Assembly: GCA_003344405.1 (NCBI GenBank)
Contig: NOWV01000145.1
Coordinates: 1 to 64,000 of the forward strand
DNA from: Trichoplax sp. H2
Lineage: Eukaryota
Length of the DNA: 64,000 bases
Direction of reading: 5' to 3'
Both the position numbers and the translations under genes were made by a program. This document shows positions 1 to 32,058 of the stretch, one piece after another. The notes under the pieces were generated by a model, which saw only the letters and a program-made list of their open reading frames with translations, searched no databases and was not told the origin of the DNA. Each line of letters begins with the position of its first letter. The stretch's first letter is position 1.

Positions 1-15
1 GTATAAAAAGTCTAT

Positions 16-410
16 TACAGTGTACTGTACAGTTGACTGTACTGTACTGTACGTGTACCGAGAGAGAATTTTGAAAGGAGTACAGTACTGTACTGTACAT
101 ACTGTACAGTACATACATGTACTGTTACAGTACTGTACTGTACTGTTACAGTACTGTACTGTACTGTTAAAAAGCATACTGTACTGTACAGTGTACAGTA
201 GTGCTAGTACTGTAATGGCGATGGCTTTTATACTGTAGGATGGTCTGAGTACAGTAGTACTTGTGCCTGCACTCAACATGTACTGTACAGTGTACAGTAC
301 TGTAGGTGTATTGTCCTGCTAATCGGTGGTCCGTTACTCTACCGTGTACAGTGTACACTGTACAGTACAGTATCATGCCAGAGTACTGCACACTGTACAC
401 TCTGTGCAGT
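16..410. repeat. Low-complexity mosaic of TACAG/TACTG (GTACWGTAC) pentamer repeats
   Basis: Dense gtactgtac / gtacagtac / gtacac units; produces spurious C/T/V/Y/Q-rich ORFs on both strands. Confidence 0.9.
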
Positions 411-975
411 AGACCGTTTAAGAACGTTTATTACTACACACTCACGGGCCACCACGACAGTAGTAAGAGAATTTTCTCTCATTAATTAAAGGTATACAGT
501 ACAGTATGATAGGATGAACTTTTCTCTTATCATATGTTCAGTCAAGCTGAGTCAACTTTATACAGTACTGTGCTGTAATCTGGTAGCGCCTTCGTACAAC
601 ATTAATACGCTGAGGTAAAGGCGACATCAATCATTTATAAGGCAATAATGAATTAACTCTGTTGAACAACTTACCTGTTCAACTGGATGCGGATGGTACA
701 TCGACCGGACATAACAGTCACCATGATACAGTGGACAGTACTCTACCGGAGGTGAAAATCGATAGAATGGCTCACTTTTTCTTTACTTATATGGCTCTGA
801 CTGCAGATGAGATGAGTTTTGCTCACTAGTACTGCACGATGTACAGTACAGTCTCTACCTGATCAGTGAGGACTGTACTGTACTGTACTGTACACTGTAC
901 GCTGTGTACAGTAAAACCGATGATTGGCATTTCGTCAATTTTAAGTCATCGGAGCAATTTCTACCCCGGCTAAAA

Positions 976-1848
976 ATGGACGAAAGATCGGATGCTGGCC
1001 TTAACGAGCAAACAGCAACCGATAGTCATCAAAACGATGAAGATTCCAATTATAAACAAATCAAACGGAAACATGAAGACAATCAAAGTGGCGATCAATT
1101 CTCCAGTATCATTAATTTATTTGAATGTCCGGTCTGTTATGATTACGTTTTACCACCTATTAAGCAGTGCACTAGAGGCCATCTCATTTGTGAAAAATGC
1201 CGATTGAAAATTCTCAAATGTCCAGTGTGCAATGAAACATTCGAAACCGACGTTCGAAATTTACAAATGGAAAAATTGGCTAGAACCTTAGTTTTTCCAT
1301 GCAAATTTAGACAATCTGGTTGTCAACTTTGCTTTTCGCCTGATGAAAGAAAGATTCACGAAGATTCTTGCCCATTTCGTATTTATAGCTGCCCTTTCCC
1401 GATTACGTGTCGATGGCAAGGCTCGCTGGATTCTGTAGTCTCTCATATTGTCAATAGTCATAAAACAGTCCCTATGCAAGATGGTGAAGATGTTGTTTTT
1501 TCATTTGTTATCACTAGTGAGGTTACTGTGTGGGCTATGATACAAAAATGTCACGATCAACACTTTTTAGTGCTTGTCCGTAAAATAGAAATGTCCCATT
1601 ACATCTATCAACTTTATGCCCTCGTTCAAGTCATTGCGCCTAAATCGATTGCTCGCAATTTCGCCTATGTTTTAACGTTGAAGGACGAACAACGCCGCTT
1701 AGCTTTGGAATCCTCACCCATTAGTATTAATGATTGTATTGATGACGCTATTGCAGTACGCGATTGTCTTTCAGTAGACTTTGTAACTGCCAAGTCTTTC
1801 AGTCAAGATGGCAATATTCGCCTCTTGGTTGCTATCAAAGCCATCTAG
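976..1848 (+). CDS. SIAH: Seven-in-absentia (SIAH/Sina) family RING E3 ubiquitin ligase, single exon
   Basis: RING CPVCYDYVLPPIKQCTRGHLICEKC..CPVC, RNLQMEKLA, two Sina zinc fingers (CKFRQSGC..HEDSC; CPFPITC..HIVNSH) and a C-terminal substrate-binding domain. First in-frame ATG is 976 (the ORF track starts at GTG 904). Confidence 0.93.
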   Translation: MDERSDAGLNEQTATDSHQNDEDSNYKQIKRKHEDNQSGDQFSSIINLFECPVCYDYVLPPIKQCTRGHLICEKCRLKILKCPVCNETFETDVRNLQMEKLARTLVFPCKFRQSGCQLCFSPDERKIHEDSCPFRIYSCPFPITCRWQGSLDSVVSHIVNSHKTVPMQDGEDVVFSFVITSEVTVWAMIQKCHDQHFLVLVRKIEMSHYIYQLYALVQVIAPKSIARNFAYVLTLKDEQRRLALESSPISINDCIDDAIAVRDCLSVDFVTAKSFSQDGNIRLLVAIKAI

Positions 1849-2528
1849 GTCAAAAGACGTAAAAATCACTTTGAATTCACTCAATTTTGGGTTTTTTAAC
1901 TTGTCGTAACCATGACTTAGACGTGCATGCATTCATATATGATCCATATATAGAGAGATAGATATATACTGTATGTAGAAAATTGTAAATTTTTCAATTC
2001 AAATTCATATCGCAAGAGATAAAATTGTAATGACATCGAGCAACTGACTTATTGTAGTGTAGAACGTTGGTAATTTGGTTATATCAATTGGATTTTAAAT
2101 CTGCCATCTCAATAATTTGTACAGTCTTTAATGTTGTCGTTTCATATTTAAAGAGCAGTTATATTATACACCTGAACAGAGTCAGACATGCATTCTGTAG
2201 ATATATTTGCAACCTATTATAACAAACCTTAACAAGCTGTATTAGTAAACCTTTTTATCTAACGACAGCAATTCTGAAGATAGTCTAAATTCTCTTCCTC
2301 TGGACCTGTTCCGTTTAAAAAATTACGATATTTTTATAAAATACTATAAGCTATGGTGGACTTCTTTTATAAGCGTAAAGCGATATCCGCTTGTCAAAAC
2401 GTTTTTATTTATAATTATAATAGATGATGATGATGTGCAAAAAGCGAATCAGCGTTGAATAATTATATTATTATTAATAACATATAATTGTACTTTTGAT
2501 TACCTAAACATCAATAAATCATGTTGTA

Positions 2529-5500
2529 TTAATTGGAATTGGAGTTTAGATTTGTAGGACGTGGAGTCCACATGTTTTGTTGTTGATATAAATTATAACT
2601 ATCGGTATTTAACTGACTGTCCTTAGTAACATTATTATTATAATTAACCGAATTATTGCTACCATATTGGAAGCTATTACTGTAATCTACAGCATCGACA
2701 TGAGGTTTCTTATTCGAGTTATCATGAGGAACTTCTTGTACAGAATGTTGTCGCTGGGATGAAAATTGTACTAGATTGTAGGCTGTTTGCAGTCTCTGAC
2801 CACCATTTACATTACTATAGTTATCTTGCCTTGGTGGCATCATTGGGGCATTATAGTTATTATTCGCTGGGTAATAATAACTATTATGATCGCGGGAATA
2901 GTTTGTAAAAACGTTGCTGCTTCTATGATACACATTTTGATTATTGACATTCAAACTTGAGTTTTGAAGATTTGCTGTCTGCGGTGCAGTAAATGGTGCC
3001 GAATAATTTACATTTGGAGAGCTAGTTCTCGTCATGTCGATATTTGTACTTAAAGAGCTACTCGATTGGCCTGCCGTTCCGGTACTTTGCGCATTTGAGT
3101 ACATAACCTGTACGGGATTTGCATTAATACCATCGTCGTTACTATATAAACTATTCGAATAGGAACTATTCGTTCCACTTGAATTGTCATACGGCTTGAC
3201 ACTGGTGGGAGGAATATAAGGTATTGACGGTAACGATTTCTTAGCGGGTATTCCAATTAGATACTCTTTGTCGTCGTAACTTGTTTCTGCTAAAGTCTCT
3301 TTCCTTGTTTCTTCAGCTGGGATAGTTGAAGGAATGTTGGCTTTAGGTGCGGTATTACAACTTTCGCTTTCCAACGGATCATGTTTCGATTGTTTAATTT
3401 TTCGCTTCCTCTTATTACTGTGTCCCAACTCAGTCATTTCAACTTTACTTGTACAATCTACACTTTCGTCTTCATGATCAATCTCGGCACTATGGTTTTC
3501 TGCAATGGAGCTTTCATTTGCGGAGGAATCGCTATTGGAGTGCGAATCCGAGTTAGGATCACCACTAGAATCGTCATCCTCACTTGCAGCATCGTCCTTC
3601 TCGGTGTCTTTGCCTTCCTTTTTCTTCGGGATCCGAGTAGGTTCTTGCCAATCTTCGACTGAAATGTCTTCCATCGGGTTGGTACATTCTCTCATGAGTT
3701 TATTTTTGATACGGGCTTGCGTACGTTGCAGTTTATAATCCCAAGGAAGAACATCCGAGAGTAACTGTTTTAGGGTTTCCAAAAGGTATTTTACTGAGCT
3801 ATCCGGATTGGATTTACTACGTCGTTTAGCTATAGGGGCTAAACTTTCACATAGTTCCTTTAAAGAATCGCAGCTATCACAAAGGAGCTCGAAATCCGAG
3901 TCGGGATTCGTAATTGTTTGCGATTTAGGCACGATTTTAGGTGGATCACGTGTTGGTGGGGAACTGTTTGCCGATTTAAACTAGAAAAAATCGATGGTTA
4001 AATGTAATTAAAAAATAGACATTCAACTAGTGATTATAGAAAATAAAATTAATTTATAATGACATTTTATTATTTTCAAGTCATTTTTGTAAATTATTGC
4101 TAATTATTACGCAAGTACCTGCCGTAATCTTTCAGGTCTTTTGTGAGGAGTAGGTAAAACCGGAATTTCCTTTACAGTTCTAGCGGGTGCCTTACGTTTC
4201 TAGAAATAAATATTGAACCGATATGATCACACTTTTCTATTGAAATTACTAATTTCTCATTCAATTTTACTGTCGCGGTGTTCAAACTTGCAACATCGTT
4301 GAATTACATTATACTGTATAGGAGCGTGCGAAATGAAAATATTACTACAGTACCTTTCTTTTTAGTATATCAGCCGTTACAGGATCGTGCTTATAAACTC
4401 TCAGGTCAAGATATAGGAATCCTGGAAAATAAAAGTAGGTTGCACCTTTGTCATCTTGGCCTAGTACAATCTCACGCAAAGTTACAGGCCCATATTGTGT
4501 TAAGACATCTCGTAATTCCAGTTCCTATATTGTATCAGAGTGAAACGATATAAAGAGAATTAAAATGTTGAAATATGCCTATACTGTACTGTGTAATATC
4601 ATATAACCAAGAATATTATTTCATATTACAGCGATTGATTTAATAATCATTTTGTTAACTTGATAGAATTTAATTGTTACAAAATAGTGAACTTTGTTAG
4701 TACTTTTATATCAATATTGTAATTACATTCGATTAACAATATATATTAACTTACCGTAACATGGTCACAAAGCGCTTTCAGTAAATATACTCGTTTCCGA
4801 AGTGATAATTCATGAAAGGGCGTAGTAATAATTTCTTCCTTATCGCCTAGTTATATTTGAATCAATTAATTTCGATCGCTACTACAAAGTTTTACGTCAT
4901 TGTTTCCAGTACAATTATTCTTATAGATATAGTGTTGATTACAATATTAAACATATTTGTAATACCTTATATTAAAATAAATTATATTTTTAAATCATAT
5001 ACACTACCTAAAACTTCAAAGAGATCAGAGGCTAATCCGAACTTATCTAGAACCTATTTATGTTAAATAAATAATGGTTAATATTATCAAAAGTTTAAAG
5101 TGATTTACGGTAGTTTGTTTATCACTTTCTTTGATCACATCGTTACAACGTACTTTTACGTCGTTACTAAACTACTACACATAAGAGTAACATTATCATG
5201 GCAACAATAGCACGCATGACGATCCGATTTTGTTATTTATATTTAATGCAAATTATCTAGACTATTTATTATGCTTATCTTCATACCATTTCCTCGTTTA
5301 ATTCATCCTTTGTTTCATACCATAATTTTAATACATTTTTTAGCTTATGATCCCAAACATTGTACGGCATGGCTTTTTTATCATCTAGACTTTAGTAGTA
5401 CAGAAATAAGATTATACAATTTAATTCTCTAACGACAAAAATGTAACCACTAGTTCAATACAGATCTACATCGTTTTAACAGTTATTGTAACGTCGTGAT

Positions 5501-7847
5501 GGATTTAATAAATTTACTACGTTATATAGAAATGACAACTGAAATATGAAGCTATTTTACATTGGATACGCAAAAGATAGAATTTGACAATTTTGTGATA
5601 ATTGCAGTATGCTTACTATTGCCGGGGCTTGGGATCCAAGAGTAGAGATGAGAATATGCGAGCCATTAGATAGCTTCGGTGCGGCATAATTAATCCTAGT
5701 TCTAATTCTTCTAAGCATACATTTCGCAAATTCAACGAATCTTGGCAAAGGAAGAATAGTTGAGCTATGGCTGGTACCTAATTATACAAGTACATGAATC
5801 ATTGTTATTATTATTTAATAGGTGAAAGACAACAGCATTGTTCAAGTCATCATTGAACAGATTTTTTATAGTGATTGATGGATTACTAACAATCAAAAAG
5901 GATCGTATCTAGTGTCGATATTACCTGCCAGTAGGATCGGATTTCTTTCACAGAGTCTAATGGGGCGTACTCTTTTTGCCAATTATTAATTTCTTCCAGC
6001 ATAGCTAAACTGGCTTCTCTAGCTTCTTGTTGTTTTTGCTTTCGTTTAATTTTTTCTTCTTCTTCTTCTTCCAATTTTACTTTAGCAACAATGGATGTTG
6101 CAAAATCGAAAGTACCTGAGCTGCGATTGCATCTACGTCTTGATGCTAATCGAATCAATAGAGATAGGTTTATGACACTTTTTAATTACTTGATTAATCA
6201 ATCTATATCTATCTATCTCTCATACAATTTTTACAGTTTAATTAATACGCTCAATACAGTATTGTATGGCTTCTATGTCTTACAATGTATTATTTATGAT
6301 GATTAAAATACCAGGCATTGCAGCTACTTACAGGTTACATTGGCGTTATCTTCTCCATCGTTTGAATTACCTCTTAGTTTATCACGAAGCGATCTGCATC
6401 AATATTTCAACTTACTTAGTACAAATAGGCATTAGACATGGACTTTGCAATGAATACATTTGAAAAACTGATCACACGTAATAAAACACAAATGATTTAA
6501 GACAGGGATATCAACTACATTTAAGTCTAGAATGCACTAAGTTAAGTTAACTTTTGAGCTAACAAGTATGAAGATTTATTGGAATGGTAGCTATGTATCG
6601 CTGGTATGCAAACGACAGTAATATCCATAAGCTGCTCTCATTTTTAGCTTGGTTTAAATGTGGAACCTAGCAGTAGTTACAGGTAGGTGTCTATAACACA
6701 TGAATGCCATAAACATATCGCTATGTATAATCTTAGTGATTTCTACTGGAGTGGTAGAACGATTAGGATGTAACTTACTTTGGAAACAGATTAATTTTCT
6801 GCTCTATGGTCTTTTCCAATTTCTGGCCCAATTTCGATATCCAATGTTTGGAGCCATTATACCGATAGCAATTTTCAATCATTAGACGAATATCACTGAG
6901 GACTTCGTTGATGGTTGTGTAGGAAGAATCATAGAATTTCTTCTTGACTGCGAGAAATAATTGAAAGAATGTAAATTCATTTTTTTGGATTGAAAATACT
7001 TTTTCTTATTTTAACCATTATTTTATCGAATTAAGTTATACTAAACACTTGTATTGATTTCAATGAAGCCATTTTAAAAGGATTTATACGGAGAAAAAGA
7101 CACGACTAAAATGATAGATAAAGCGTAACGCCGGTAAGACATGCAAATCTTGTCAGTGTCTCTTCTTTCTCACTGACCGGCAAGCAAGATTGCAAAATAG
7201 CGTGTCGTAATAAAGAGAGAAAACTACTCACTTTGTACTTAAGCGATTAGTCAATAAAGTTGAAAATTGGCATAGAACATCATTATTCTAATGGACAAGT
7301 ATAGCAATGACACTATCTCTATATTCTCTTGATGTTCATCACGATGATGATTGGTGTATAGCAAGGTAGTTGAAATTGAAATGAATCAATGAATAACAAA
7401 GGAAAAAACGATATACAGTACTATGACTGTTATGAGTAAACAGTTGTCTTCGACTAATGGATGCTATCCAGTCATTTTTCTTCCTTGCTAACATAGATCA
7501 ATCAATTTGCAATCAGTTGACAAACAAAACAAGTTGATATGCATCCACTTACTCCATACTAAACACATTGGTTGTTTAATTCGATCATAGTAATCCCATA
7601 GTCCTAATTTCTCAGTATCAACAGGTTCACGAAAAGGCCATGTCATACTTGCAAATTGATTGGAAAGGAGATCATTGACTAGTTTCCATCCTTGGAATAA
7701 TTCAGCGCTTAATGTATTGACGATATCGTCATCACTAATGGATTGTGTTGTACTTTGCTCAATGGGTGTTTCTTCTATTTCGGTTGTTGATTGCTTGCTC
7801 TTTTCATTGGAAACCAACGGTTGAGAATTCTCCTGTCCACTGTCCAT
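2529..7847 (-). CDS. BRD10: Multi-exon bromodomain protein, KIAA2026/BRD10-like
   Basis: Spliced exons give WPFREPVD..DYYDRIKQPM (7551-7847), DIRLMIENCYRYNGSKHWISKLGQKLEKTIEQK (~6779-6948), VPAIAQLFFLCQ..LEELELGLIMP (~5617-5777), MPYNVWDHKLK (~5288-5388), PFHELSLRKRVYLLKALCD (~4756-4846), REIVLGQDDKGATYFYFPGF (~4354-4524) and a long last exon 2529-3980. The order and motifs match KIAA2026 as I recall it. Confidence 0.85.
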
Positions 7848-8891
7848 TTTAATTTCATGTCAAATCAGGATATCGGACATTGGTGGAGTAGCGGTGAGAA
7901 GTTTGCTCTGCGCAAACTCAGCAAAGCACGCTTCACTTTACTTGAGTCAAACGAGTTTGGGGGTGAACGTATTGTGCTGACTGACATGTGTAACTCGACG
8001 CCGGTCGATGGTGTGTTGCAGCCGAGGCGAGTGACAAGAGGCTCAGGCGCAGTATGGCGGACGATAGTGTCCCGCATACAGTATGTTGTTCGACTCTCAG
8101 CCAATCAATCCCAGCGTCCACTGGAGCACTCTATCATGGAGCACTCTATCATGGACTACTACCGGGAGTCCCATACTCATCGTTCTTAACCCCCCCCCCG
8201 GCCAATAGTACTACATGTAGACATGTAGTAGTATATATATTTTTAAAAGGTAATGGATATTTTTAAAAGAGGTTATAAAGTCTCTAGTCGTTCATAGTGG
8301 CTCTATCATCATGGAAGTACAGGTTACTGTTCGTTTCTACTTGTTTTACGTTATCAGTGGCTGCTTATACTGTACAGTACATTGAACAGCGTGTTTTGCG
8401 CATCAGTAAAATACTCGCGCCTATGTGGTGCAAGCACACTCTGGGAATGGGACGACCAACTTTACAGTATTATATTACTGGTCATTTTACTCTGCCGAAT
8501 GACTAGAATCGTACAGTATATTGTATCGCGGTCGACCAACTTGGCGGCTACTAGGATTACACTTAAAATGACCAGGCCAAAAAAAAGCGGCCTCTCATCA
8601 CAGTTACCGTTGTTGTGGACAGACGGACATTTTTCTAGCAAAGCAGACATTATGAAAATGCCGAAAATCATGATAGTGTTGTATTGTAGATCGCTTGTGT
8701 GAGTATTCTATGATCACGACTATGAATTCAAGAGCATTCATGACGTTATACAACTGTAATTAAACAGAACTGAGCAAAATAGAATAGGATTCAATGCAAT
8801 CTTGCTTAGTTTAGTAACAGAAGCTCACTAGAGAGTTTCACGTATACAGTATAAATCCACTTGGGATTTCGGATTTTCGGGTGAATGAAGT

Positions 8892-9135
8892 AGGAAGGAA
8901 GTTGGACGGATTGCTGGAACTTCATTTTCTGTAAAATGCGCATGTGTTAATCGTAACAACAGTCCATCCGTCCACTGCCTTAAGGTTCAAGCTCTTGCGT
9001 TTCAACTTTCAAGTTGCAAACTCTCGGAAGGAAGTTGGACAGATTACCGGAACCTCATTTTCGATAAAATGCGCATGTGTCAATTGTAATAACGGTCCAT
9101 CCGTCCACTGCCTTAAGGTTCAAGCTCTTGCGTTT
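8892..9135. repeat. Tandem duplication, 2 copies of ~134 bp
   Basis: ggaaggaagttggac..ccatccgtccactgccttaaggttcaagctcttgcgtttc starts at ~8892 and again at ~9026. Confidence 0.9.
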
Positions 9136-9776
9136 CCAGTTGCAGCTCTCCTCTTTCCGTCTTTACTGTACGTCGACAATTCCATCAGGATTAAAGGGAA
9201 TTCACGTTATGGCGTTAAAGGTTTGTTAATATTGCATGATCTGTATTCATTCAGCTTCTATTTTAGCTATAAGCTGATCTGTAAGAATAATGATTTCTCT
9301 CCTGAACGCCAATCCAACGATATTTGCATGTTGTTGAATAACAAAGTCAAGAGTAGATCTACCATGTTCCTCATACGAGTAACCACAATACTGTATGCGT
9401 ATATGGCAGGATTCCCTGCTAGCCAGTGCAATCTCTATTTGCATTAGTGGATTGGATCTTTTGATGCCATCGATGCTTTATTACTCTTTGACTTAATTGA
9501 CTACTTTCCAATACAGTATTGGCGTACAGCATACGTCTACAGTCTATGAGTAAAGTCGCGTAGTAAAGACGAAAAGAATGAAAGATGAACATCGTATGCA
9601 ATGCGGTAGAATATTACCACAAAACTGGAATCTCTAGCGGTCAAGAACGATATTATAGATATGATCTTCCCTTTATAGTGTAGTATCAGCTACAACTATT
9701 CAATCATCGACACTGTGGAGCTCTACAGTAGTTTAAGCTATTGAAATTGGATTTTAGAATTGACACTACAGTACTG

Positions 9777-10320
9777 TACTGATATCCATTGTTGAATAAT
9801 TCTCCAATTAAAATCCGTCATCGTTATCATTTAAAATTGGCTATACAAGGCAAATATTTTCAGTAAATTTCGAAATACTATATTTACCTTTTACATCAAT
9901 AATCTTCTACTGATATCCAATGTTGAATAATTTTCCAACCAAAATCCATCATTGTTATCATTTAAAATTAGTTATACTGTACTGTATAGGGCAAAATTTG
10001 CAGCAAATTTCTAAACACTCGTATACCTCTTACATAAACATTCTTCTACTGTATCGATATCTAGTATTAAGGTTAAATAATTTTCCAACCAAAGTCCATC
10101 ATTATTGTTATCACTTAAAATTGCTTACACCACGCAAAATCTTCGGCAAATTTGTATACACTTTGTTATCTCTTTCATAAATATTCTTCTACTGATATCC
10201 AATGTTAAATAATTTTCCAACCCAAAATTTATCATTGTTGTTATCATTCAAAATTGTCTATAGATATCCTGTACAGCCTTACGAGGCAAAATTTTCAGCA
10301 ACTGGGCTAAAACTTATCAG
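9777..10320. repeat. Degenerate tandem repeat, 4 units of ~130-140 bp; last unit runs into the first recognisable GULO exon
   Basis: Units tactgatatcca.tgttgaataatt.tccaa..gttatcatttaaaattg start at ~9777, 9908, 10048 and 10190. Confidence 0.85.
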
Positions 10321-13300
10321 TGCCAGCCAGAGCTATATTTTATTCCTGAAAGTATCGATCAATTAAGAGATGTAAGATGAATAATAATAAAGAAATAATG
10401 ATTACCCAGCAGATTTTAATATTTGTATAAACAGAATTTAGCCCTTATGGTAGATGGAACGACAACAGTTACAATGTACAGTACACTAGTTCCATTACTT
10501 ATCCTTTACCATGAATGATTTGAAATGTCGACTTTGAAATTTTTAAGCTACGAGATATCGACTCAAAATGTAGAGCGTGACTTGTATACCTATACGAATA
10601 GCAAATACTGTGTCAAGAGACGCATATCAATCACCGATACTACAGTATGATAGTCTTAGCGAGCAGTTTATTAATATTTAACAACATTGTCGTATCATTC
10701 AATTCGTTGTGCAACCTCAATATATAAGTTCTTGCACCCATGCCGGCAGATTTAAAATCAATAAGTCATAGTACAACACACAGCACATAAGCTATTGTAA
10801 AATCATAATCTCTTTTAGAATAATAATAGGATTTTGGTCTTAGAGATTGATTAAATCGACAGATTAACGTGTATTTACTATAGAAGGTTGCCGCCCTAGT
10901 TTAACATTTTCGACTTCAATGTACGCTGTAGTTATACCATACTATTAGCTAAGGCATGGCTACTATAGTTGTATAGCTAATAACTTATTAGGATACAAAA
11001 TAGTCTTCAATTTTTGAATATCATGAACAGTTATTAGAAGATTTACAGATCGAATGAAATCTCTAAAATCATACTATTTTCTGTGAAATATTAGGTTATC
11101 AAGTTGGCTACAATTCATAAGAAAGTCGTTAGAGTAGTCGGCTGCGGCCATTCTCCGTCGGACATTACGTGCACGTCGGATTACATGATCAGTATGGAAA
11201 AATTATCCGGTATTCTTGAAGTAAGCCATTAGTAGAATCATTGTTTAGGCATGATATTTTAAGATACTGTGAAAAATTCCTATTTATTATCTATTGGTCA
11301 ACTTTTGTTTGGCTTATAGGTTGATGTGGATCGTAATCAAATAAAAGTACAAGGTGGTGTCAAGATTGAGCGGCTACATAAAGTCCTAGAAGAGTATGGC
11401 CTTGCTATTAGCAAGTTAGTATCTGTAAATTTGTAATTAACAAATAAAACTAACTGCGCTTAGACATTTGAATTCGTATCTTGTAATTAATCGGTAACTT
11501 GTAAGCTTATAGATATGGGTCGCTTTCATTAATCATTTGTAGCTAGTATAAGTAAGATGCATCTATTATCCTCACGAAATTTTTGTAATTGCTTAATTAG
11601 CATTTACAGTAATGTACAGTAGGTAGTTAACATTGGATGGTAGATATGTTTTATGTAATGATTCAGTTAAGGCTGAAGCACTTGTAGGAGATCTAAAAAT
11701 ATATGCTATTTAAACGCTGTATGATAAATTATATTAATTGGTGATGGCTACCGTAGATTGTTAAGGTTATTTCAGAATACAATGGATCGATAGTTATTAA
11801 GTTGTTTTTGACATTATAAGCAACTCTACGAGGCCTATAAAAAGCAATTCTAGTTTGGAAAATAGAGTTTGAGAAGAAATTATTTATAGAAGATTGTTCT
11901 AAAGACCTCTCTTGTTGATTTATTTATTCGTTAGATAATTCTCTTTTTTCTGTAACATTATTAGGATGTCTTAGCAATGTCTCAGAATTGCTTAATTAGC
12001 TTTTATTGTAAAAGTCTTGTTTAGTGATATTTTTTTCCTATTTGAATAGCATCGGTTCGGTATCCGATATCACTCTATCGGGAGCAATTGCTACTGGTAC
12101 TCACGCAACAGGTGTCGACTTTGGCATGCTTGCTACCAATGTAGGATTGCATGGATATAGAATAGAAATTACTGTACTTTACAATGTACTGTACATATGT
12201 CACGAAATTGACATTGCAATTCATAGTTTTATACTGTTTCATACTAGGTCTTAGAGATTGAATTATTGCTAGCCAATGGGGAGCTCATGGTATGTTCTCG
12301 ACATCAAAACAAGGAAATTTTTTTGTGTGCTTTATGCAATCTTGGTGCACTTGGTGTTGTTGTTTCAATCAAATTACAGTGTGAAAAGAGTTTCAAATTA
12401 GAGCAGCAACAATCTTCCTGTACTCTTGACGAGGTATTCGGAAGTGATATAGTTCATTATCTTTCAGAAGTAATACTATGTATTGACCACCAGTTACTAT
12501 TACAGGTATTAGATAATTTGGAAAATGAAGTACGCTCATGCGAACACTTTCGTTTTGGTTGGTTTCCACATACTAATGATGCAGTTGTATGGAAATGTAA
12601 CAGAATCACCAAGGTAATGTAATAGTTTTGTATCAACACGAGTTAGAGTGTAGTTCGTGATCAATCTGATAGTTAAGCAGATTATTACAATTTTATTATA
12701 TCCCATTAATAGTAACAAATACTAAATTCACTACTTTCGTTACTTTCTCTTTAATTTACCTAGCCCAAAGTCGATAGTTACAATTGGTTTTGGGATAGCA
12801 TTGTAGGTTATCATTCTCTTCAGTTCTTGTACTGGTTGAGGTAAATCATTAAAATCATTGAAGGAGACTATATGTAAATTTATGATAATTATATTAGTTA
12901 CAACTTATATTTGATATATATAAATATATATATTTATATATTTTTATTTATATCGTACTGACTTAACGGATGACTTTATAGAGACGCAAGCCTGAATATG
13001 TTTTATTCTATCTCCTGTGATTGTAGCTCCTACTTTGATAGTCTTATCCCATGGATAAATAGAACGTTCTTTGGATTGTTGTTCCGTAAACCAAAGTATC
13101 GTGTCGATGATAGCTATAAGGTTAAGGCTGCAGTAATATTTCACGATTTTAATAGCAAAACTTTTTAATGTAACTACCTTTCACTTTAAGATTGTTCGCA
13201 ACTGTAATAACCATACTAATTAGGGGCTTGTATATATTGTTAATGCGTTCTAGGTATTCAACTTTGAATGCTTGTTTAAGCAATACGTCACGGAATGGGC

Positions 13301-14269
13301 CATACCTAGGTAATCATTATATAATTATTAACATTTAGCCGTATTTGATAACTATTATAACCAAAAATTACAACCAAGACATAATTAAAATTCCTTTAGT
13401 GCTATGTGATAAAGTTTTTAGTTACATGTTAGAAATATATATACTTTAGTGTGTTAACGTTAGTATTTCGTGTAAGTTACAGATTAAAGGGTTATTTATT
13501 TTTTATTATTATATGGAAATTACAGGGAAAACACTGGCATAGTGCTAAGGCAGTTGCGAGATTGGCTGAACACAAATAACTTTTATGCTCATTACCCTGG
13601 TAATGGATAGTTGTAATTACATTGAATATGGAGAGTATTACAGAGCATTATTTTAATTAAAATTTTAATTTTTTAATTTCACGTTAGTTGAAGTACGATT
13701 TGTTAAAAGAGATGATGTTTACCTTAGCCAAAATTATGAACGTGATACATGCCACATCAACATCGTTATGTATAGGTATAGTAAAGAGTCTGTAAAGAAC
13801 GATATCTTTATTGTAATAGCGTCTATTTAAAGTTACTCTTGTTTTAAAATACTCAAACTTCTCAAAAAGACCTTATGGAAAATTCATTCCTCATGACCGC
13901 TATTGGAAGGCATACGAAGAAATAATGCTTGCTGCTAAAGGAAAACCCCACTGGGCTAAGGTTGGGCATAAGTAATATACAGTAATACGTACACGCCGCA
14001 TATTTAAACGCTGCTTAGCTTTTTTATTTAAACGATTAGATATTAAAGAATTTTAAAAATTCGGTTATACTACATTATCTTAACTTATGTAATGCAATAA
14101 CACTAATTGAAGCTACGTTTATTAGGCGCATAGTCTGACGTATAAAGAATTGTCGCAGATGTATCCTCAATATGATAAGTTTTGCAAAATCCGCGATGAA
14201 CTTGATCCCAATCGGATATTTATTAATCGTTATTTGACCCAAGTTCTCTTTGAAGGCCGGGAAGAGTAA
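10264..14269 (+). CDS. GULO: L-gulonolactone oxidase (FAD-linked), multi-exon; the start-codon exon was not resolved
   Basis: Exons encode FSNWAKTYQCQPE (10264-10371), VVGCGHSPSD (FAD-binding His), GAIATGTHATG, HFRFGWFPHT, NWFWDSIVG, FECLFKQYVTEWAIP, HYPVEVRF, RPYGK, GKPHWAK and DELDPNRIFINRYL..EGREE stop at 14269. Confidence 0.92.
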
Positions 14270-15258
14270 ATTACAAGTTTTGCAGCAGCATTTTTAAAGA
14301 AATGACGTACATTCTTTCAACAAATTGATAGTATCAGCATGACCATTGTATACTGTAAATTACTTATTTGGTCGTATATTAATAGAGTTTACTAGATTAT
14401 TTAAAGCTTTAGGATGGGATTTATTTACTATCACTACGGATTTATAATGTACGCGTACGGGTATTATATTAATGATTGCTTTCTTCTTCTTTACGTATAT
14501 CGGCTTATACTAATTAATGTAGCAAAAACATTTTCATCTTCCTAAGGTCCATTGCTCTCATCATAGGCATTTATGAATAAGACTCTGTATTCCTTGTTAT
14601 TTGAATTAAAATAATTGTGTTAGAATTTTTATTATCAGCTTTATGATAAATTACCTTTTGGGCTTGTTTTTATAGTTAGATTTTATACTAATGATATTAC
14701 TAGATAACAACTTGATAATCCATATAGATTAAGAGAACCCAAGGACATAACCAATTTACTGTAAAATATTTTACTTTGTCATTTCAAAAATAGATAGTTA
14801 CTACATTAAGTCATAGAAGCTACATCACCTTAAAATATGCTATATACCCCTTTATATTTATATTACAATCACTATACAGTACGTAAATCGTTGCTAATTT
14901 GGATTAGATAGTTGCAAGCCGAAATATTATAATTATACTATACATTAAACCCAATAACAATCATTTAGCAAAGAAGCGATAATTTCAACGTATACCATGT
15001 GCATCAGAAGTAATGAAAAATAAAAAATTGAGCTCAATCAATGGTGTATATAACTAAATATATAATACAGAATAGTAAGAATGGAGTCAAGGTTATAGTA
15101 TCTCATTGATCACCCAACAAGTATAAATATTTTGGCGAATTAGTGTTGATTGACGCTCTTTGTCCAATTAATTTTAGATTAGAATGTGTTCCAATAAGAA
15201 AGTGAGACGTCAATTCTCTTCATCAAATGATGTATCATCAATTTGAAAGTATTTTACT

Positions 15259-17191
15259 TTATTCTAGTACATCATCAAACGATAGTTTCCTGACAGATGC
15301 GTCCATTATATGGCCAGTATCGCGAGACTTTAATTCGCCTTGCAAATATGGGCTATTACTTGGAATAGGAGATATATCAATACAAAGCATTTCCGCTTTT
15401 ATCATTGATGATCGAGCTGGAGTTGAAGAGAATTGACTGCAGTCTGATGTATAGCTTGATTCCTTTGAAAGAGAAAATCGACATAAAATTTACAACTTAT
15501 TCGTGCTAACATTGGGACTACTATGTGTACACACATTTAGTAGAGGTAGAGTTAAATAAAAAACTTACCTGAGAAGATAATGCCAATTCACCCAAAGACA
15601 TGGGACCGATAGTACTATTATCAATACTAGCATAAGGTAGAAAAACGTTTATTATACCATTGTCCGTCATTAATATGGTTTAGAAGAGCAATTTACTGGC
15701 TGACTTAGTTCATACCTCTCACTACGACAGCTAGTATTAAGACTCATCCTCTCACACCCTACTAATGGTGATTTAGTGAAGGAATTTTGATATTGACACA
15801 TACTAGTAGCATTTCCTTGAAGAAATAACTTCTTACGTAGTGATGACAATAATATATCTTTATAAGCTTTCTGGCTAGTGGAATTTTGACAACCTATGTG
15901 TGCAAATGAAGATACAGTCTTTATTTTTGCTCTAATTAAGAAATATAACATGATCTTATTATTAGCAAGAGGATTTTCCTCATGTCCTATAATGCAATAC
16001 TCACTCTCAGGCGTAACAAACAATGCTGTAGAATTAACCGGCATAAAAGGCGATTTTGCTGAACTTTGGCTCTTAGTATGTGAATTCTCTAAAGAAATTG
16101 GATAACGTGGCAATATTGTTAACACTACTGAATGATTCATGTTGGCTATGATTACTTTTAAGACTCATATTATTCAAGAAAAAGTATTTATTGTATCGTC
16201 GAAAACTGTCAGCTAGAATGACAAACATTGAACACCATACAGTACTGCAGCCTCTATAACATTTTAGCTCTAAGTTCGTATTTTATATTCAATAGTGACA
16301 GTCACGAAGATTACTGTCAATAAGAAATGGAAGCTTTCATTTAAAGCACAATCCTTACTTGATTCTTTGTTTACCCAAGGTGACGGAGCAATTAGATTTT
16401 GACTAAAAAACTATAAAATAAATTCAACAGTGATTAGACTGGCTAGAAGTGTATTGGCATTTTAACTATGTTACGATTTCTTTTAATCGCAATCATATAC
16501 TTGAAAAGTTTTCAATTATAGCATGAAAGATGATTGAAAAATGGCAGATGGTTGTATCTAATTTTTTTTATTCATTTTCTTACACTTTCTATCGCATTTT
16601 GGGATTCTTCTTCTTGTTCTTTAGACAATCTGGAAGAGAAGAGCAAAATTAATGATTTCTATCAACAGTACTCTGTGACGCCTATCAATTATTCTTATCT
16701 ACTTACAAAACTGTTGAATCTTGGTCTGTTTGCTCATCAATATCTGCGGGATTCTATATACCATTTAAAATTTTTGATTACTGTCACGCTTTCACATATT
16801 ATGTAGATGGAAAGAATCAAGATTGATTATACGATCATCCTATTTGCAGTGGACTTACCATTACTGCAATTTGATCAATACTCCATCGAAATGTTTTAGT
16901 CTATCCAAAAAAAAAAAAAATGAATACACATTAAATCAAATCCACTATTGATGGAAGAGAATAAATGAATCCAAACTGCGAGTGTTATTATTATTATTAT
17001 TGGAGACAGTTGACAGTTCTGCGGCATTTATCGTTGAAGGACGCATTAACATTCGGACAAACCTTTGGCTTGTTTGGTGTGGATAATTTTTTCATCAAAG
17101 ATGGGCTAAAATCTGGAAAATTGATACGGTTATTATTGCACCAAGGCTCGAAAGGATTATAGGAGCACTGCAATGAAGACATGGTGTCCAT
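15259..17191 (-). CDS. BORA: Protein aurora borealis (Aurora-A/PLK1 activator), multi-exon; 5' end uncertain
   Basis: Exons encode NPFEP..FSPSL..STP (~17062-17191), FRWSIDQIAVM (~16859-16900), NPADID, EESQNAIES, FFSQNLIAPSPW (~16358-16411), SSLRKKLFLQGN and QFSSTP, which are characteristic Bora motifs. Stop TAA at 15259-15261. A short intron near 15627-15715 is inferred. Confidence 0.85.
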
Positions 17192-17432
17192 CGGCGGAGT
17201 GGATGAAGGTCGATTTACTTTCTAATTCTTACCAATGACTGCTTTCACGCAATCTTGTTCCTAAAACATCTATTGATTATACGTTGACTTCTTGTACTTG
17301 CTGATGATGATAGATAGTTTTACTAGGAATGCAAATTGCAGTAGGTAAAACTGTTTATTAATAAGGAATAGACCATCGGCGTCATTCATTAGCCACTAGG
17401 ATTTCTTTCCCATTTTTTGTTGTGCAACAAAA

Positions 17433-17577
17433 TTTGAAAGCAGCCAATGAATGACATGAATGAGACTGAGTCTGCGTTGAAGAAGTCGCTGGTAGGTCCG
17501 CTTGACATCACGTGGTTGATCAACCGTGATGATAATACTCGACGACTGTACTGAATTCAGTCTATCGTGCGCATGCG
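17433..17577. promoter_or_regulatory. Candidate BORA promoter motifs: CHR-like TTTGAA (17433), CCAAT (17444), E-box CACGTG (17509), NRF1-like TGCGCATGCG (17568)
   Basis: Motifs seen directly within ~150 bp, just 5' of the BORA coding region; function inferred from mammalian consensus sequences. Confidence 0.45.
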
Positions 17578-18444
17578 TTAGTCGTATTGAGTTGTTACAG
17601 TATATTGTACACTGTGCACTCATACTGTACTGTACTACAGTAGTATCGATCTACAGTACTGTATGGAACCGTTTGGAAGGCAACTTTAGAGGGCCAAAAT
17701 GGAATTAATTAACTTGATAAACAAATGAAGTGATTTTCTTCTTGATACAACTAGAATAATGTATCATCGTTTAAGCTCTTTACGCTGAGTATCGGAGTCA
17801 TCGGGGTTATTATGGCTGGGCCTAGTGTACACTGTACAGTAAAGCGTGCGATGAGAATGTTAAATGATGTTGAAATGGTATCATATTGTACTTCTTTTGT
17901 ATGAGTCAGTATGACTAAGATGGAGAACTTTTGTAAAAGAAAGTGGCGGGTTCTACTACACTACTGTACAAGTGTACATTGTGCAGTGTGTCATGTACGA
18001 CGGTACAGTGTGATTTCTTCGATATATATATGGATTTAAATAGTAATCAAGCATAAGTAAAACGCTTCAAAAAGACCAATGGTTGTGAACCTTCCTAAAC
18101 AGATAGGTCTCATATACCTATTAAAAGCATGCATTTGCGATCAATTATAATGATATATAAATGACAGGTCTATCAAATGGTAATACTATCTGTTAAATGA
18201 GCACATTATCGTAAACCGTCAGCAAAGCGACGGGAGTTTGCACTAGTGTATAATGAAACACGTACAGTAGGTTTGAAAATACAAAATTGTGCTGTTTATT
18301 GAAAGAATGTACCACTCAACCGAGCAAAATACCAGTTGAAATAGTTGCGAATTGAACATACTTGTACAATTGCGCATGCATTAAACTAACACACAAGTCG
18401 TCCTTGGACTTAATTAGTAAACGAAAGCCATGCTGCCATTAGCA

Positions 18445-18750
18445 TACAGTACAGTATGGAGTACAGTATACACTGTACACTGTACTGTACTGTACTGTAC
18501 GATATCACGTGGGTGAGTCTCCACTACAGTGTACAATGTACAGTACTACGCTACAGTATAATGTACTCAGTACATTGTACAGTACTGTACAGTACTATAC
18601 GATATCACGTGGGTGAGTCTCTACTACAGTGTACAGTGTACCGTACTGCACTACAGTATAATACACTCAGTACATTGTACTGTATGATGTCACGTGAGTG
18701 AGTCTCTACTACAGTGTACAGTGTACAGTACTGCGCTACATTGTACTGCA
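18445..18750. repeat. TACWG-rich tandem repeat (3 units, 100 and 85 bp spacing), each unit carrying CACGTG
   Basis: gatatcacgtgggtgagtct at 18501 and 18601, and gatgtcacgtgagtgagtct at ~18686, embedded in tacag/tactg sequence. Confidence 0.88.
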
Positions 18751-18805
18751 TACGAAACCGCTTGACGCTTGCTGTCATCTGCTTTTCACATCTAGGAGCC
18801 AAAAA

Positions 18806-21017
18806 ATGTCGATGCCAGAGATAAGTCGCAAGAAAGAAATCTACAAATACGAAGCTCCATGGAATCTTTACAGCATGAATTGGAGCATTCGTCCTGATAA
18901 AGGTTTCCGTCTAGCTTTTGGTAGCTTTATTGAAGAATATAATAATAAGGTATGCCATAAAACATGTTGTTGATGCATGGCTAAAACAACCGATCCAATT
19001 GATCAGCCGTCATCATCCGCTTCAATGACAGTAGACTAAGACGATATCACATGTTTAAGACACTCGATAGCAGTCTACTACCGACACAACACAATAACAA
19101 GACAATATAGGCAAGAAGGAAAACTATGGCTGGGGATGCTCTTTCATTCCATTTGTTTCTTTTTAGTCAGCACTCAGTCACACAGTGTCGACAAACTTTT
19201 CTTTCACTTAAACTATAAAAATTCATCATGAAAATTAGTTTTGTCCTTAATTTATCCAACATAGCTCATCGTTCTTGACTCGATGTGTCTTGTTGATCAT
19301 CACTCTTCAACTTCTTTCTACAATGGAACTCGATCGATATAAACACTAGCGATCGACAAATTGAACTACTACAAATACACTTCAATTACTGCATTTTTTC
19401 TCCTAATTTGATGCTTACTATCATCGATTAGGTTCAAATTGTATCTCTCGACAATGATGACGCTGATTTTGTTGTCAGATCAACGTTCGATCATCCTTAT
19501 CCAACCACTAAATTAATGTGGATTCCAGATGGGGTAATTTATCTCCGCTGATATTGAATACTAATAAACTACATAGCTTGATTTCACAGATCAAATAGTT
19601 GCACAACATGGATTATTCCTGTTCTAACCTATGTTCAATCAATTTTCTATTTAAAGAAAGGGATATATCCTGATCTTTTGGCTACATCTGGTGATTATTT
19701 AAGATTGTGGAGAGTAGGCGATGAAGGAACAAAATTAGAATGCTTATTAAACAATGTAAGTTAAATAATATCCGAATTATTTATTTGGATACTTTAACTG
19801 ACTTTATTAACCAATATTTGATGTTTCTTGAACAAAGAGTATGAATTCCGATTTTTGCGCTCCGTTGACTTCCTTCGATTGGAATGAAATTGATCCAAAT
19901 ATCATCGGAACGTCAAGTATTGATACTACTTGTACGATATGGAATATAGAGGTACAGGCCACAAAATGGATTGTAGTATGGTTAGCGTGATTGAACCATT
20001 CAACCACAGTAGTACTCATTAATAGTCAATGATGGAATGCCATGCCAATTTTCTTTTACTAACCTTTTTATGTAATATATATATATATATATATATATGT
20101 TAGACTGGTCGAGCAATTAGTAGATCTACACCTGTTTCAGGACGTATTGCAACACAGCTGATTGCACATGATAACGAGGTAATTTCTTCCTATCGATAAA
20201 CATTGCAGTACCTAGCCATCCTATTTAGAAAAAAACTGACCAATACATTTATTCAAACAAGGTTTACGATATAGCATTTAGTAGAGCATCTGGTGGACGT
20301 GAAATTTTTGCCTCGGTTGGCGCCGATGGCTCAGTACGGATGTTCGATTTAAGGTAGTCTTTACTAACAAATTAATCGAATACGTGGTAGCTACGACATG
20401 ACCTAGACGATGTACTCTTACTTCTAAAACTGACTGAAAAACCTGATATTGTAGGCATTTGGAGCATTCAACAATCATCTATGAAGATCAAGCGCATGCT
20501 GCATTACTGAGGTTATGCTGGAATAAACAAGATGCCAATTATTTGGCGACATTCGCTCTCGATAATTGCGATGTACGTCTCTATATCCAGCTCTTAACTG
20601 TTCATCTGTTGTTACCCTTTAAAGAAAAAGTATTAATGCACATTGTATATTCTAGGTCATCATCCTTGATATTAGAGTGCCCTGTACGCCTGTTGCACGC
20701 TTAAGTAACCATCGAGCTTCAGTAAACGGTATCGCATGGGCACCCCATTCCTCATGTCATATATGTACCGCTGGTAAGATTGAATCTCATATAGATGATG
20801 ACTGTTAATTTTATAACTTAATCCATTCGATCTATTCTATTTAGCTGATGATAAGCAAGCTCTAATTTGGGATATTCAGAAAATGCCCAGAGCTATTGAA
20901 GATCCTATCTTAGCTTATACTGCAAAAGGCGAAATAAACCAAATTCAATGGTCGTCAACGCAACCTGATTGGATTGCAATTTGCTATTCAAACTGTCTAG
21001 AAATATTACGTGTCTAA
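18806..21017 (+). CDS. DCAF7: DDB1- and CUL4-associated factor 7 (WDR68/HAN11), WD40 protein, multi-exon
   Basis: [118 protein letters not shown] and final LEILRV stop at 21017. Confidence 0.96.
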
Positions 21018-24157: not shown

Positions 24158-24866
24158 TATGATTGTCTATGGATGGTGATAGATCGTTGATATTACTGTC
24201 GATGCGATCAATATGGTTAAAATACACTTCAAAGCTCCACACAATCAACACTAGCAATGACTAGTAGGGGATTTGAACTGAGTATTTCCAACTACAAGCG
24301 TTAGCCTCCAACAAAAGTGCAAAAAATTCACACTTTCTATCAGCTCGATATCGAGTCTATAATAGTACCGTATGAGCAGGAAATAGATTCTTAACACTTG
24401 TACTGTACAGTATAGTAGAGGAAAACCAGTATATATATATAAGTATACAAATAAATAAATAATATAATAATTATACAATAATATACAAACAAACGGAAAT
24501 TTTTTTTTGGCAAGACTGAGCGATGGGTGGGCAATAGGTTAGCGACGGCAGGTATGGCGTATACTATACAAGGATAGTGTACAATACAGTAGCAGGGGAT
24601 ATAGTGTACAGTATTGAAAATGGAGGTGTTAATAAAATAATAAGGGTTTCAATAAACAGCCTAGGCACTAGAATAACAGTTAGTCATGATCTCGCCGGAA
24701 ACAAAACGCTCATGTGTTTCTCGTGACTTTCTTGCAGAATAAAGGATAGAATAGAATCTACTATGCCATAGGGCTTTCTTCTATCCTTAGGAAGAATATT
24801 AAGATTGAAGTCTGTACAGTCTGGAGTCCATGACTGATGTCAGACAATGGATAATTGTGTCTGTGC

Positions 24867-26345
24867 ATGCTAATCGCTGAAGATTTTCAGCTTTCCGTTT
24901 GGATCGGCATAATCATTGCTACTCTTCTTCTTTCCAGTAGTCTCGGGCAACGTTAATAGGCAAAACACTGTAATTGTATTGTCATGACTATGAGTTATCA
25001 AAATTGCTGTAGACTTAAGTATTATATATATATATACTGTATACTTATTACAGTTAAATAAATTATCGCACTGTAATATCCAGGTTTCCTTCTAGCGATT
25101 CTAGTGATGACTATGAGTTATCAAGATTGCTGTAGACTTCGGTATTATATATATATATACTGTATACTTATTACAGTTAAATAAATTATTGCACTGTAAT
25201 ATCCAGGTTTCCTTCTAGCGATTCTAGTGATCCGTGATTGAGGTAATGGAAATCCGTTTTGCAATTCGGTAACTCGACACAAAATAATTCCAAGTTACGC
25301 GTATATTGTACTCGTATAACCTGCAATCGATAGTTCACGATAGATACTGTACGAGTGCCAAGATGGGCAACAATGCTTCAATTAAAATGTGCTAATTTAT
25401 TATTGAAGTTTTCTCAACGATCAATATCAGTAATCGGCACCATCTCCAGATCGAAGCAATAGGCACAAGGAGTACAGAAATTGTATTATCATAACTGATA
25501 GTATTACTCTATCATAGTTGATAGAGCCCCCTAGTGAGCAGCCTATCCTCTAAGATATTAGTAACCATCGTGAAGTAGGTTAAATAACGCTTCCTCGGTT
25601 ACCTTATATCTACATTCCATTTTTATTCACATTAATAGAGCTCATAATCACAGCCAATCATCGTAGAATGGCTCAGAGATCGGTATAGATTAGATTGAAC
25701 TTCTTATTCTCACTTTCATTCTAATCAATCAAAATTAATGCAATTAGCATTTAATTAGTAGTTTGTAATTTCGCAGATACTATCATAAGCATGCAAAGTT
25801 TATTATACAAGTGTATTATTATTTTTTTGAGCTTACAAGTTTCCAATTGCAAATATTAAAATGCATACTAATTCTCATTTCTGCTATATAGAACGGTATC
25901 TTAGTAGATAAGCTTGAGGAGTATCCTACTGTACTAAAGACATTATTTGCATAGATATTGTACGAATCAAAGCACTATACACGCACTTACTATGAAGAGA
26001 TGGTAAACTGAACAATCTACCTAACCAATACTGCAATTTTAGCATGCATGGAGTGATAATTCTATTCCAGTGCTATTGCCAATAGTAAATGATTGTTAGA
26101 AAAATAAATCAATGATGCTAATATAGCAAACTAAAATGGAATCAGCGGATCCCTATAATGAAATATACTACTAACGCTAAACCCATTAATATAATTTTTT
26201 ACGTATCATGATAACGGATTATCGATGATATTCATCAATCGAATTAAAAATTTATATTTTGTAAAGTACTATAATAAATGGCATTTTGGTAGCTTTTATG
26301 CTGGTTCTACTGATCGTTGTCTACATACTGAAGAAGAGGGCATAA
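24867..26345 (+). pseudogene. Putative decayed LRR-containing single-pass membrane protein
   Basis: Ordered fragments broken by stops and frameshifts: signal-peptide-like ORF, Cys-rich cap, LRR-like pieces, LRRCT-like FQCYCQ, and a TM helix followed by KKR. Recognised by eye only. Confidence 0.45.
24985..25230. repeat. Near-perfect tandem duplication, 2 copies of ~123 bp
   Basis: atgactatgagttatcaa..ccaggtttccttctagcgattctagtga at ~24985 and ~25108. Confidence 0.93.
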
Positions 26346-30663: not shown

Positions 30664-31188
30664 GTTTGTACTGTTGTAAGCAGAGTAAGATCTTGATCTG
30701 CCTTTTTCAAAATTGTTCAAGACTTGTGTTGATTGTCAGGTGTGGGGAGTCTATCATGCAACTGGTCCTACCATTATTGGCTTGACTGGTTGGTTGTAAA
30801 TCACATGTCCTTGCACAAACTAGATGCAAAGCTTATCTAAAGATTGGATAGTATTAAATAGAAAACTACTGATTGAGTGTACTGTATAGCTTTAAATTCT
30901 ACAGGGACGATGTTCTCCTTGAGCTCCTCTAATCTAACTTGGAATTCCACCCCACCTATGGTCGATTTCTTTACAGACTAGATAAGCCTTGTTAAAACAA
31001 TGGCTACATTAGATACGATGTAGTCTATTGTACTGTACTACTGAGTATTGGACTGTACTGTACCAACTGCCAACAGTAATGAGTATTGAGTAATGAGTGC
31101 TGTTACAGCAGAGACCCTGTATGAGAGACATGACAATCTATTGTTCAAATTTACACCTGTTCCCGGTGGACTGAGTAACTAAGAGACG

Positions 31189-31636: not shown

Positions 31637-31744
31637 CGTATGCACTGGTAATTTTAGTTTTAGCATTTCTATGCGACACTGGCGTAAGAGATTGTCATTC
31701 ATACGAGAGTATAGACTAGCAAATTTCCCTACAACCTACTGTAC

Positions 31745-32058
31745 TGTATAAGCCACTCTGAGACATTACAATTATTCTTATTATAATCTGTTCGTAGAGA
31801 TAGAAGAAAAGCTTTTATCAAGTCCAAACCAGCTGTCAACCAGTACAGTACAGCTATATCTACTGTACTGTACTGTAGAAGATTGCCATTTAGATTACCA
31901 TTAAATTTGATGCGCAATACTGTACTGAAAGAAGATATTGTTATTTCCAGCAGAAAGTAGACAGCAATTTACCTGAAACATGCAGTATATAAGCCAATCT
32001 GAGATAGTATAATCATTATTATAACCTATTGATAGAGATAGAAGAAAACCTTTTATCT
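31745..32058. repeat. Degenerate partial duplication (~75 bp, ~240 bp apart)
   Basis: agcca.tctgaga..ttattataa.ct.tt..tagagatagaagaaaa.cttttatc at ~31750 and ~31990. Confidence 0.7.

Follow-up and report, generated by a model that had tools for sequence, protein, structure and literature searches.

(GTACW)n tracts upstream of genes in a 64-kb window of a Trichoplax genome: a rediscovered promoter-proximal repeat that may cluster binding sites

The closest described system is the dominant microsatellite of the Trichoplax adhaerens genome. In the passages on this repeat, Wang, Zhang, Meyer, and Bao (2010, Biol Direct 5:18; PMC2871265) count 11,697 microsatellites, of which 7,233 are pentanucleotide repeats, with ACAGT accounting for 78% of the latter. 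They place 54% of the ACAGT repeats no more than 1 kb upstream of a gene and 85% no more than 5 kb, note that genes for ribosomal proteins and kinases are enriched among those linked to the repeat, and propose, already in 2010, that the repeat is a transcription factor binding site. By these counts there are ~5,600 perfect arrays for ~11,500 genes, and the repeat is thus the most conspicuous sequence feature of Trichoplax promoters.

The motif also appears in work on genome folding. The passages on T. adhaerens in the description of the Chimaera network (NAR 2026; PMC12817080) name "repeating motifs ACGG and ACAGT," obtained by a de novo motif search directed at insulation, fountains, and loops in Micro-C data, and insertion of the motifs that the network found changes the predicted maps. 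Only two sequences are explicitly linked to insulation in those passages: ACGG, assigned to the Kim et al. (2025) transposon, and a pattern of 4 nucleotides within the M1BP motif. The model for T. adhaerens scored the M1BP motif as important. Insulation falls at gene starts in T. adhaerens and such boundaries are said to be common to most organisms, so the network motif may only mark active promoters. According to the passages of Kim et al. (PMC12221973) that bear on this question, placozoan promoters form three-dimensional hubs, and a different promoter motif corresponds to Mutator terminal inverted repeats at loop-anchor promoters; the letters ACAGT are absent from the main text of that paper, and the letters of the Mutator motif are not given in the text. 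Placozoan regulation is described as mainly promoter-proximal in the relevant passages of Najle et al. (2023; PMC10580291), and in Eitel et al. (2018) the motif letters occur only within a primer. Our literature search with the motif letters and promoter or placozoan terms returned only the 2010 paper and the 2026 Chimaera paper; core promoters and initiators of Trichoplax were the subject of no paper found, and no placozoan factor for the motif was named in any. The earlier note on this DNA had known of no described factor, which holds for placozoans within the literature searched and fails for vertebrates, where PLZF/ZBTB16 is described, in the pertinent passage of PMC3398472, as binding exactly 5'-TACTGTAC-3'.

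Here we examine one window, by which we mean the whole 64-kb stretch of DNA that was analyzed (G+C content, 33.7%). Its ORF at 32966-33970 matches an "expressed hypothetical protein [Trichoplax adhaerens]" with 99% identity across 93% of the query; further matches of 55-73% are unnamed or Trichoplax paralogues. The window thus derives from T. adhaerens or a very near relative. It is near certain that the tracts described below belong to the (ACAGT)n repeats found near Trichoplax promoters: the genome is placozoan, the window holds 12 perfect runs longer than 12 bp, and the majority of these lie close upstream of genes (9 of 12 within 1 kb of an ATG, and the remaining 3 at 1.0-1.1 kb). The unit, the organism, the upstream bias, and the hypothesis of a transcription factor site are shared with the 2010 description, whose passages on the repeat cover perfect repeats >12 bp only and do not mention mixed A/T tracts, a 7-bp variant, scattered single copies, or orientation neutrality. 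Motif and organism are likewise those of the Chimaera paper, where, in the passages concerned, the attribution was made in silico from contact maps and comes without a protein or an experiment. Since the same repeat and upstream bias are in PMC2871265, and the motif is in the T. adhaerens passages of PMC12817080, the finding is a rediscovery of a repeat whose promoter role was proposed in print in 2010. The details that we add (the GTACW unit, mixed strand-symmetric tracts, the 7-bp variant, orientation neutrality, the lack of shared flanks, and the identity with the PLZF site) refine the known description without changing it.

Eleven genes were placed in the window from Pfam matches on stop-to-stop ORFs and from spliced RNA contigs (Table 1); several of the start codons are inferred. 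The RNA contigs come from four runs over positions 1-20000, all four with GT..AG joints (run X10 is recorded as RNA); they fix no transcript start, end, or strand, and stretches that they leave uncovered are not used as evidence. Pfam backs the names SIAH, bromodomain, GULO/ALO, S28 peptidase (PRCP), DEAD helicase, ATG8/LC3, and thiolase that had been given to the genes from sequence, whereas BORA and DCAF7 are unconfirmed. Single ORFs of the latter two genes had no Pfam match, a PDB sequence search with the first exon of the DCAF7-like gene had no match, and the same search with the minus-strand ORF at 17000-17221 gave weak zinc-finger matches (E = 0.03-0.04). The N-terminus of the DCAF7-like product is probably that of DCAF7. 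The strands and 5' sides of both genes are set by spliced RNA contigs. In three runs, single RNA contigs link GULO exons to a long 3' piece (14124-15461) and also contain the minus-strand intron of the BORA-like gene, so these convergent neighbors overlap or were co-assembled. A search of the window with Rfam gave no match at the gathering score, and no tRNA gene was found in it.

Table 1. Positions of genes, motif tracts, and repeats in the 64-kb window
Feature	Position	Strand	Description
SIAH	ATG 976	+	Pfam, RNA contigs
Bromodomain gene	2532 to about 7849	-	Pfam; start codon inferred
GULO/ALO	exons confirmed from 10262	+	Pfam; first exon with ATG 8312 inferred
BORA-like gene (name from the earlier note)	intron 15461-15568, contig to 17312	-	RNA contigs; start inferred
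DCAF7-like gene	ATG 18806, introns from 18947	+	spliced RNA contigs
PRCP (S28 peptidase)	ATG 24157	-	Pfam
DEAD-box helicase	first ORF ends 30735	-	Pfam; start codon inferred
EamA/SLC35G-like transporter	32966-33973	+	
ATG8/LC3	ATG 37101	+	Pfam
Thiolase (ACAA2-like)	ATG 44639	-	Pfam
ABC-B transporter	about 54173 to window end (64000)	+	start codon inferred
Largest cluster	16-567		28 TACWGTA, 6 perfect period-5 runs >12 bp; 410-950 bp upstream of SIAH ATG
Proximal SIAH tract	842-913		5 TACWGTA; 22-bp perfect (ACTGT)n run at 872-893
Bromodomain/GULO tract	8368-8518		four copies adjoining divergent promoter; just downstream of inferred GULO exon 1
Copies absent from the earlier list	9724-10053		on local ~130-bp tandem repeat
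BORA-like tract	17596-17663		six copies at 5' side of minus-strand gene
DCAF7-like tract	18445-18750		14 copies, 60-360 bp upstream of ATG
PRCP tract	24401-24613		four copies, 245-460 bp upstream of minus-strand ATG
Helicase tract	30880-31062		three copies, 150-330 bp upstream of first coding ORF (minus strand)
Helicase/EamA tract	31737-31924		seven copies, two perfect runs; mid divergent intergenic region, ~1.1 kb from either ATG
LC3 tract	36770-36865		two exact and degenerate copies, 240-330 bp upstream of ATG8/LC3 ATG
Thiolase tract	44893-44904		GTACAGTACTGTAC, ~255 bp upstream of minus-strand ATG
Period-5 repeats (Tandem Repeats Finder)	21-58, 80-167, 872-893, 18479-18500, 31861-31877, 44890-44935		
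Period-7 repeats (Tandem Repeats Finder)	185-199, 284-298, 340-366, 18625-18641, 18710-18729		
Self-matches of the motif-masked window	8893-9144, 9780-10256, 24981-25231, 31200-31629, 31749-32057, 45329-46505, others		local tandem duplications

All of the tracts that the earlier note had listed were found, at or a few bases from where it placed them, and its gap of ~64 bases between tract and SIAH start codon was close to the 62 bases that separate the end of the last copy (913) from the ATG. The largest cluster, at the left edge of the window, may also serve a leftward gene beyond it. Of the 11 genes, the ABC-B transporter alone departs clearly from this pattern: its upstream DNA carries just three isolated TACWGTA copies (53639-53920), with no multi-unit tract.

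The tracts have varied neighbors. CCAAT boxes lie between the bromodomain gene and GULO. At 9780-10256, three to four tandem units of ~130 bp each start with CTACTG(TA), with motif copies at 9975-10053; this repeat probably falls within the first intron of GULO. Beside the tract of the BORA-like gene, the divergent promoter has CACGTG at 17509 and an NRF1-like GCGCATGCG at 17569. The promoter of the DCAF7-like gene (18469-18750) is built of about three units of ~100 bp, each with a TCACGTG(G/A) E-box flanked by GTACW copies (CACGTG at 18506, 18606, and 18691), and the RNA contigs collapse two of these units (joint 18499 to 18708). A perfect CRE-like TGACGTCA at 36865 directly follows the LC3 tract, and a second copy is found at 32943, 23 bp ahead of the EamA start codon. 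A telomere-like CCTAACCCTAACCCTAA (2.8 units; 36658-36674) lies ~430 bp upstream of the ATG8/LC3 start, and the stretch between thiolase and the ABC transporter, which has no recognizable gene, holds a satellite (45329-46505) of 170/250-bp units whose copies are about 90% identical.

The motif is far more frequent in the window than its composition predicts. GTACWGTAC is present 44 times, whereas 100 dinucleotide-preserving shuffles average 0.42 (largest count, 3), and TACWGTA is present 150 times, compared to an expected 14.54 (sd 3.58, largest 24). The pair TACAGTA/TACTGTA (n = 150) is the commonest 7-mer, and the runner-up (n = 87) is AT rich. Half of the TACWGTA copies (75 of 150; 8.5/kb) fall in upstream zones, defined as ≤1 kb 5' of the 11 start codons, which comprise 8,828 nt or 13.8% of the window; gene bodies (40,237 nt) hold 49 copies (1.22/kb), and the remainder (14,935 nt) holds 26 (1.74/kb). 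For GTACWGTAC the corresponding numbers are 34 of 44 (3.85/kb), 6 (0.15/kb), and 4 (0.27/kb). The claim that the tracts mark the 5' ends of most genes is upheld by these counts in the window and, genome-wide, by the upstream bias reported in the passages of PMC2871265. Counted as clusters, GTACWGTAC is upstream in 8 of 16 cases (binomial p = 6e-4), and when all TACWGTA clusters are taken, singletons included, 10 of 47 are upstream and the enrichment is not significant (p = 0.10).

Across 416 control 7-mers of the same composition, the mean upstream fraction is 0.104 (sd 0.094, largest 0.60), compared to 0.50 for the motif, and the controls that top the list are shifted versions of the motif. 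The zone ≤600 bp upstream (6,138 nt, 9.6% of the window) contains 44 of the 101 copies of ACTGTAC, which is present in 9 of 11 promoters, and the top enriched 6-, 7-, and 8-mers of this zone all come from the ACTGTAC motif family. Seven of eight copies of a variant, ACGGTAC (GTACCGT), are also ≤600 bp upstream of start codons, in six promoters; this may be a second permitted form of the site or a distinct motif. Under a first-order Markov model, the observed and expected numbers of TACWGTA are 75 and 4.6 upstream, 49 and 7.5 in gene bodies, and 26 and 3.4 elsewhere, an excess of ~16-fold in the upstream zones versus 6- to 7-fold elsewhere. With a third-order model, one that learns the motif as well, much of the excess is lost, yet 75 upstream copies still exceed the 40.3 expected (largest 59). 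Confident coding sequence (10,671 nt) has three copies (0.28/kb), close to the chance level of 0.23/kb, and RNA-confirmed introns (3,114 nt) have six (1.93/kb), all within GULO, in agreement with the earlier impression that copies are rare in exons.

The nearest copies are 68 to about 330 bases ahead of start codons. Relative to the likely transcription start, tracts lie upstream (SIAH, DCAF7), apparently at the start (PRCP), or downstream (inferred GULO exon 1). On the sense strand of the upstream zones there are 41 TACTGTA and 43 TACAGTA; because divergent gene pairs force symmetry, orientation was also counted without them, giving 25 and 20. Thus, there is no orientation bias.

The repeat unit is better written as GTAC plus one base, (GTACW)n, where W is A or T. 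In the window, the middle base of GTACNGTAC is A in 16 copies, T in 28, C in 3, and G in none. Among 103 successive GTAC pairs ≤20 bp apart, 47 have a 5-bp and 14 a 7-bp spacing. The perfect period-5 runs are 13-22 bp long, none has more than four perfect units, and A and T switch between neighboring units in 5 of 13 cases. From these spacings, run lengths, and switches, the tracts are short, interrupted, and partly strand symmetric. Their self-complementarity, also claimed earlier, is borne out by folding: as single-stranded DNA, 16-410 reaches -87.5 kcal/mol, compared to -64.4 for shuffles (z = -5.48), and none of 100 shuffles folds as well.

Based on these features, we tentatively read the tracts as clusters of binding sites for a putative protein that would recognize ACTGTAC/GTACWGTAC in either orientation, marking promoters. 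The position of the tracts, a fifth base that is only A or T, the mixing of A and T, the two spacings, and the absence of orientation bias all point this way, as do the recovery of the motif from contact maps (PMC12817080, T. adhaerens passages) and the PLZF precedent (PMC3398472, passage on its site). Each promoter would hold a single kind of quasi-palindromic site (core, ACTGTAC/GTACAGT) in a group of short, interrupted copies, and a putative sequence-specific protein, for which a dimer or a multi-zinc-finger protein is a candidate, would read the site in either orientation. With many copies occupied over the few hundred bases around the transcription start, the promoter would stay nucleosome free and a local contact boundary would form, and the level of expression would be set by neighboring ordinary sites (CACGTG, CCAAT, TGACGTCA, and GCGCATGCG). 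Such action would be nearer to that of insect housekeeping promoter or boundary motifs of the M1BP or BEAF-32 type than to that of a directional core-promoter element. The wider proposal, that (GTACW)n is a placozoan-specific promoter code and that a putative dedicated protein, possibly a PLZF-like zinc-finger protein, opens promoters and builds the Micro-C contact boundaries, taking, in a genome that lacks CpG islands, the role of CpG islands or of M1BP/BEAF-32 sites elsewhere, is possible and rather doubtful. Against the binding-site reading are the nonsignificant upstream test over all clusters (p = 0.10), the varying position of tracts relative to likely starts, the small sample of 11 genes from a single window, several of them with putative start codons, and the 6- to 7-fold overrepresentation of single copies in gene bodies and other intergenic DNA, an excess outside promoters that a mutational process would give as well.

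The main rival takes up this last point and accounts for the excess in introns and other noncoding DNA. The tracts would be a by-product of mutation, a hairpin-prone microsatellite: a quasi-palindromic pentanucleotide that forms slipped hairpins, grows by replication slippage, and is kept where it is tolerated, in transcribed, nucleosome-free promoters and in introns. No dedicated protein would read it, and any influence on nucleosome occupancy or DNA flexibility would be generic. We consider this origin unlikely on the whole, while several observations agree with it: shuffled sequences fold much less stably than the tracts, 12 perfect period-5 runs exceed 12 bp, the motif is in excess everywhere outside coding sequence, introns included, copies are carried along by local tandem duplications, and long (ACAGT)n arrays occur in many unrelated metagenomic contigs. 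A metagenome scan for tracts ≥24 bp yielded at least 114 stretches (L001-L114; G+C content, 33-63%), so the repeat unit extends beyond placozoans. The motif-masked window had no blastn match to the metagenome stretches listed (at least 114); these loci are microsatellites unrelated to the window and serve here only for the contrast between pure and mixed arrays. In the at least 114 stretches listed, nearly all arrays are pure A or pure T, and 562 of 608 five-unit windows from long arrays are pure, as slippage would produce. The window, in contrast, mixes A and T and never has G; its 5 switches in 13 compare with 62 in 1,331 in the metagenome stretches listed (Fisher p = 2.5e-4), a difference that is suggestive only, as ascertainment differs. 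The tracts of the window are moreover short and interrupted with two spacings, and an upstream excess of 16-fold versus 6- to 7-fold elsewhere would need an extra bias.

Three further explanations are less well supported than either the binding-site reading or the mutational one. The arthropod initiator (Inr) is TCAGTY, with the core CAGT. The tracts have CAGT on both strands and could be arrayed initiators in which RNA polymerase II starts bidirectionally, which we regard as improbable. Tract sequence is present in contigs of all four RNA runs, and many of these contigs fuse it to diverse unrelated sequence (loose ends at 875-900 and 18710; depth of tract contigs, 59-352), so tract sequence is transcribed at several loci. 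One SIAH contig starts within the tract, at 881, although contigs fix no starts; the proximal copy pair of the PRCP tract is 20-30 bp downstream of a TATATATATA run; and ACAGT is, by the account in PMC2871265, the commonest pentanucleotide repeat in ESTs. However, the other three SIAH contigs start 28-74 bases past the tract (941, 958, and 987), tracts can be as distant as 1 kb from a start codon and also occur within introns, and the sense-strand counts given above do not show the fixed orientation of an initiator. The contig of the DCAF7-like gene (X10) reaches 18801.

The presence of tract sequence in the assemblies of four RNA runs, together with the strong self-complementarity of the tracts, would also suit a transcribed 5'-untranslated-region element whose GUACW RNA hairpins tune translation or stability. 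This is highly improbable, as most copies are too distant to be in the mRNA (e.g., 23-567 for SIAH), neither strand is preferred, and random-primed RNA libraries also catch introns and upstream transcripts. Least probable of all are remnants of transposons or MITEs that carry the motif in their ends and insert into promoters, as the Mutator terminal inverted repeats tied to a different promoter motif in the relevant passages of Kim et al. (PMC12221973) might suggest, given that each of the 24 self-matches of the motif-masked window is a local tandem duplication, with no link from one promoter to another, that the window has no ACGGACGG or other tandem ACGG run, and that transposon content is put at 0.13% in PMC2871265, in the passages concerned. 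The earlier note had named pieces of a MITE or satellite, positioned without regard to promoters, as the outcome that would count against it; within the 64-kb window, no sequence is shared among promoters once the motif is masked.

The binding-site reading can be set beside the systems that it most resembles. Naming the reader protein, if there is one, would account for the way in which a very simple animal labels its constitutive promoters. The earlier idea of a promoter or open-chromatin code retains its link to gene 5' ends, and its parallel with CpG islands is an analogy only: the CpG observed/expected ratio is lower in upstream zones (0.75) than in gene bodies (0.93) or elsewhere (0.96), and an actual CpG island was rejected, there being no local CpG enrichment. 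Vertebrate CpG islands are likewise a compositional mark of many promoters, and they act through methylation and CXXC-domain readers, whereas the tract mark is not CpG based. The PLZF site includes an octamer identical to the tract core and demonstrates recognition by a C2H2 zinc-finger protein of this sequence, which by letters recurs throughout the window (GTACTGTA, 71 copies; GTACAGTA, 76 copies). PLZF is a vertebrate BTB-zinc-finger repressor that acts at scattered single sites. Motif 1 of M1BP and the BEAF-32 motif in insects are likewise short motifs at constitutive promoters and are linked to contact insulation; they occur in single or few copies and have known proteins, whereas the Trichoplax tracts are multimeric tandem arrays.
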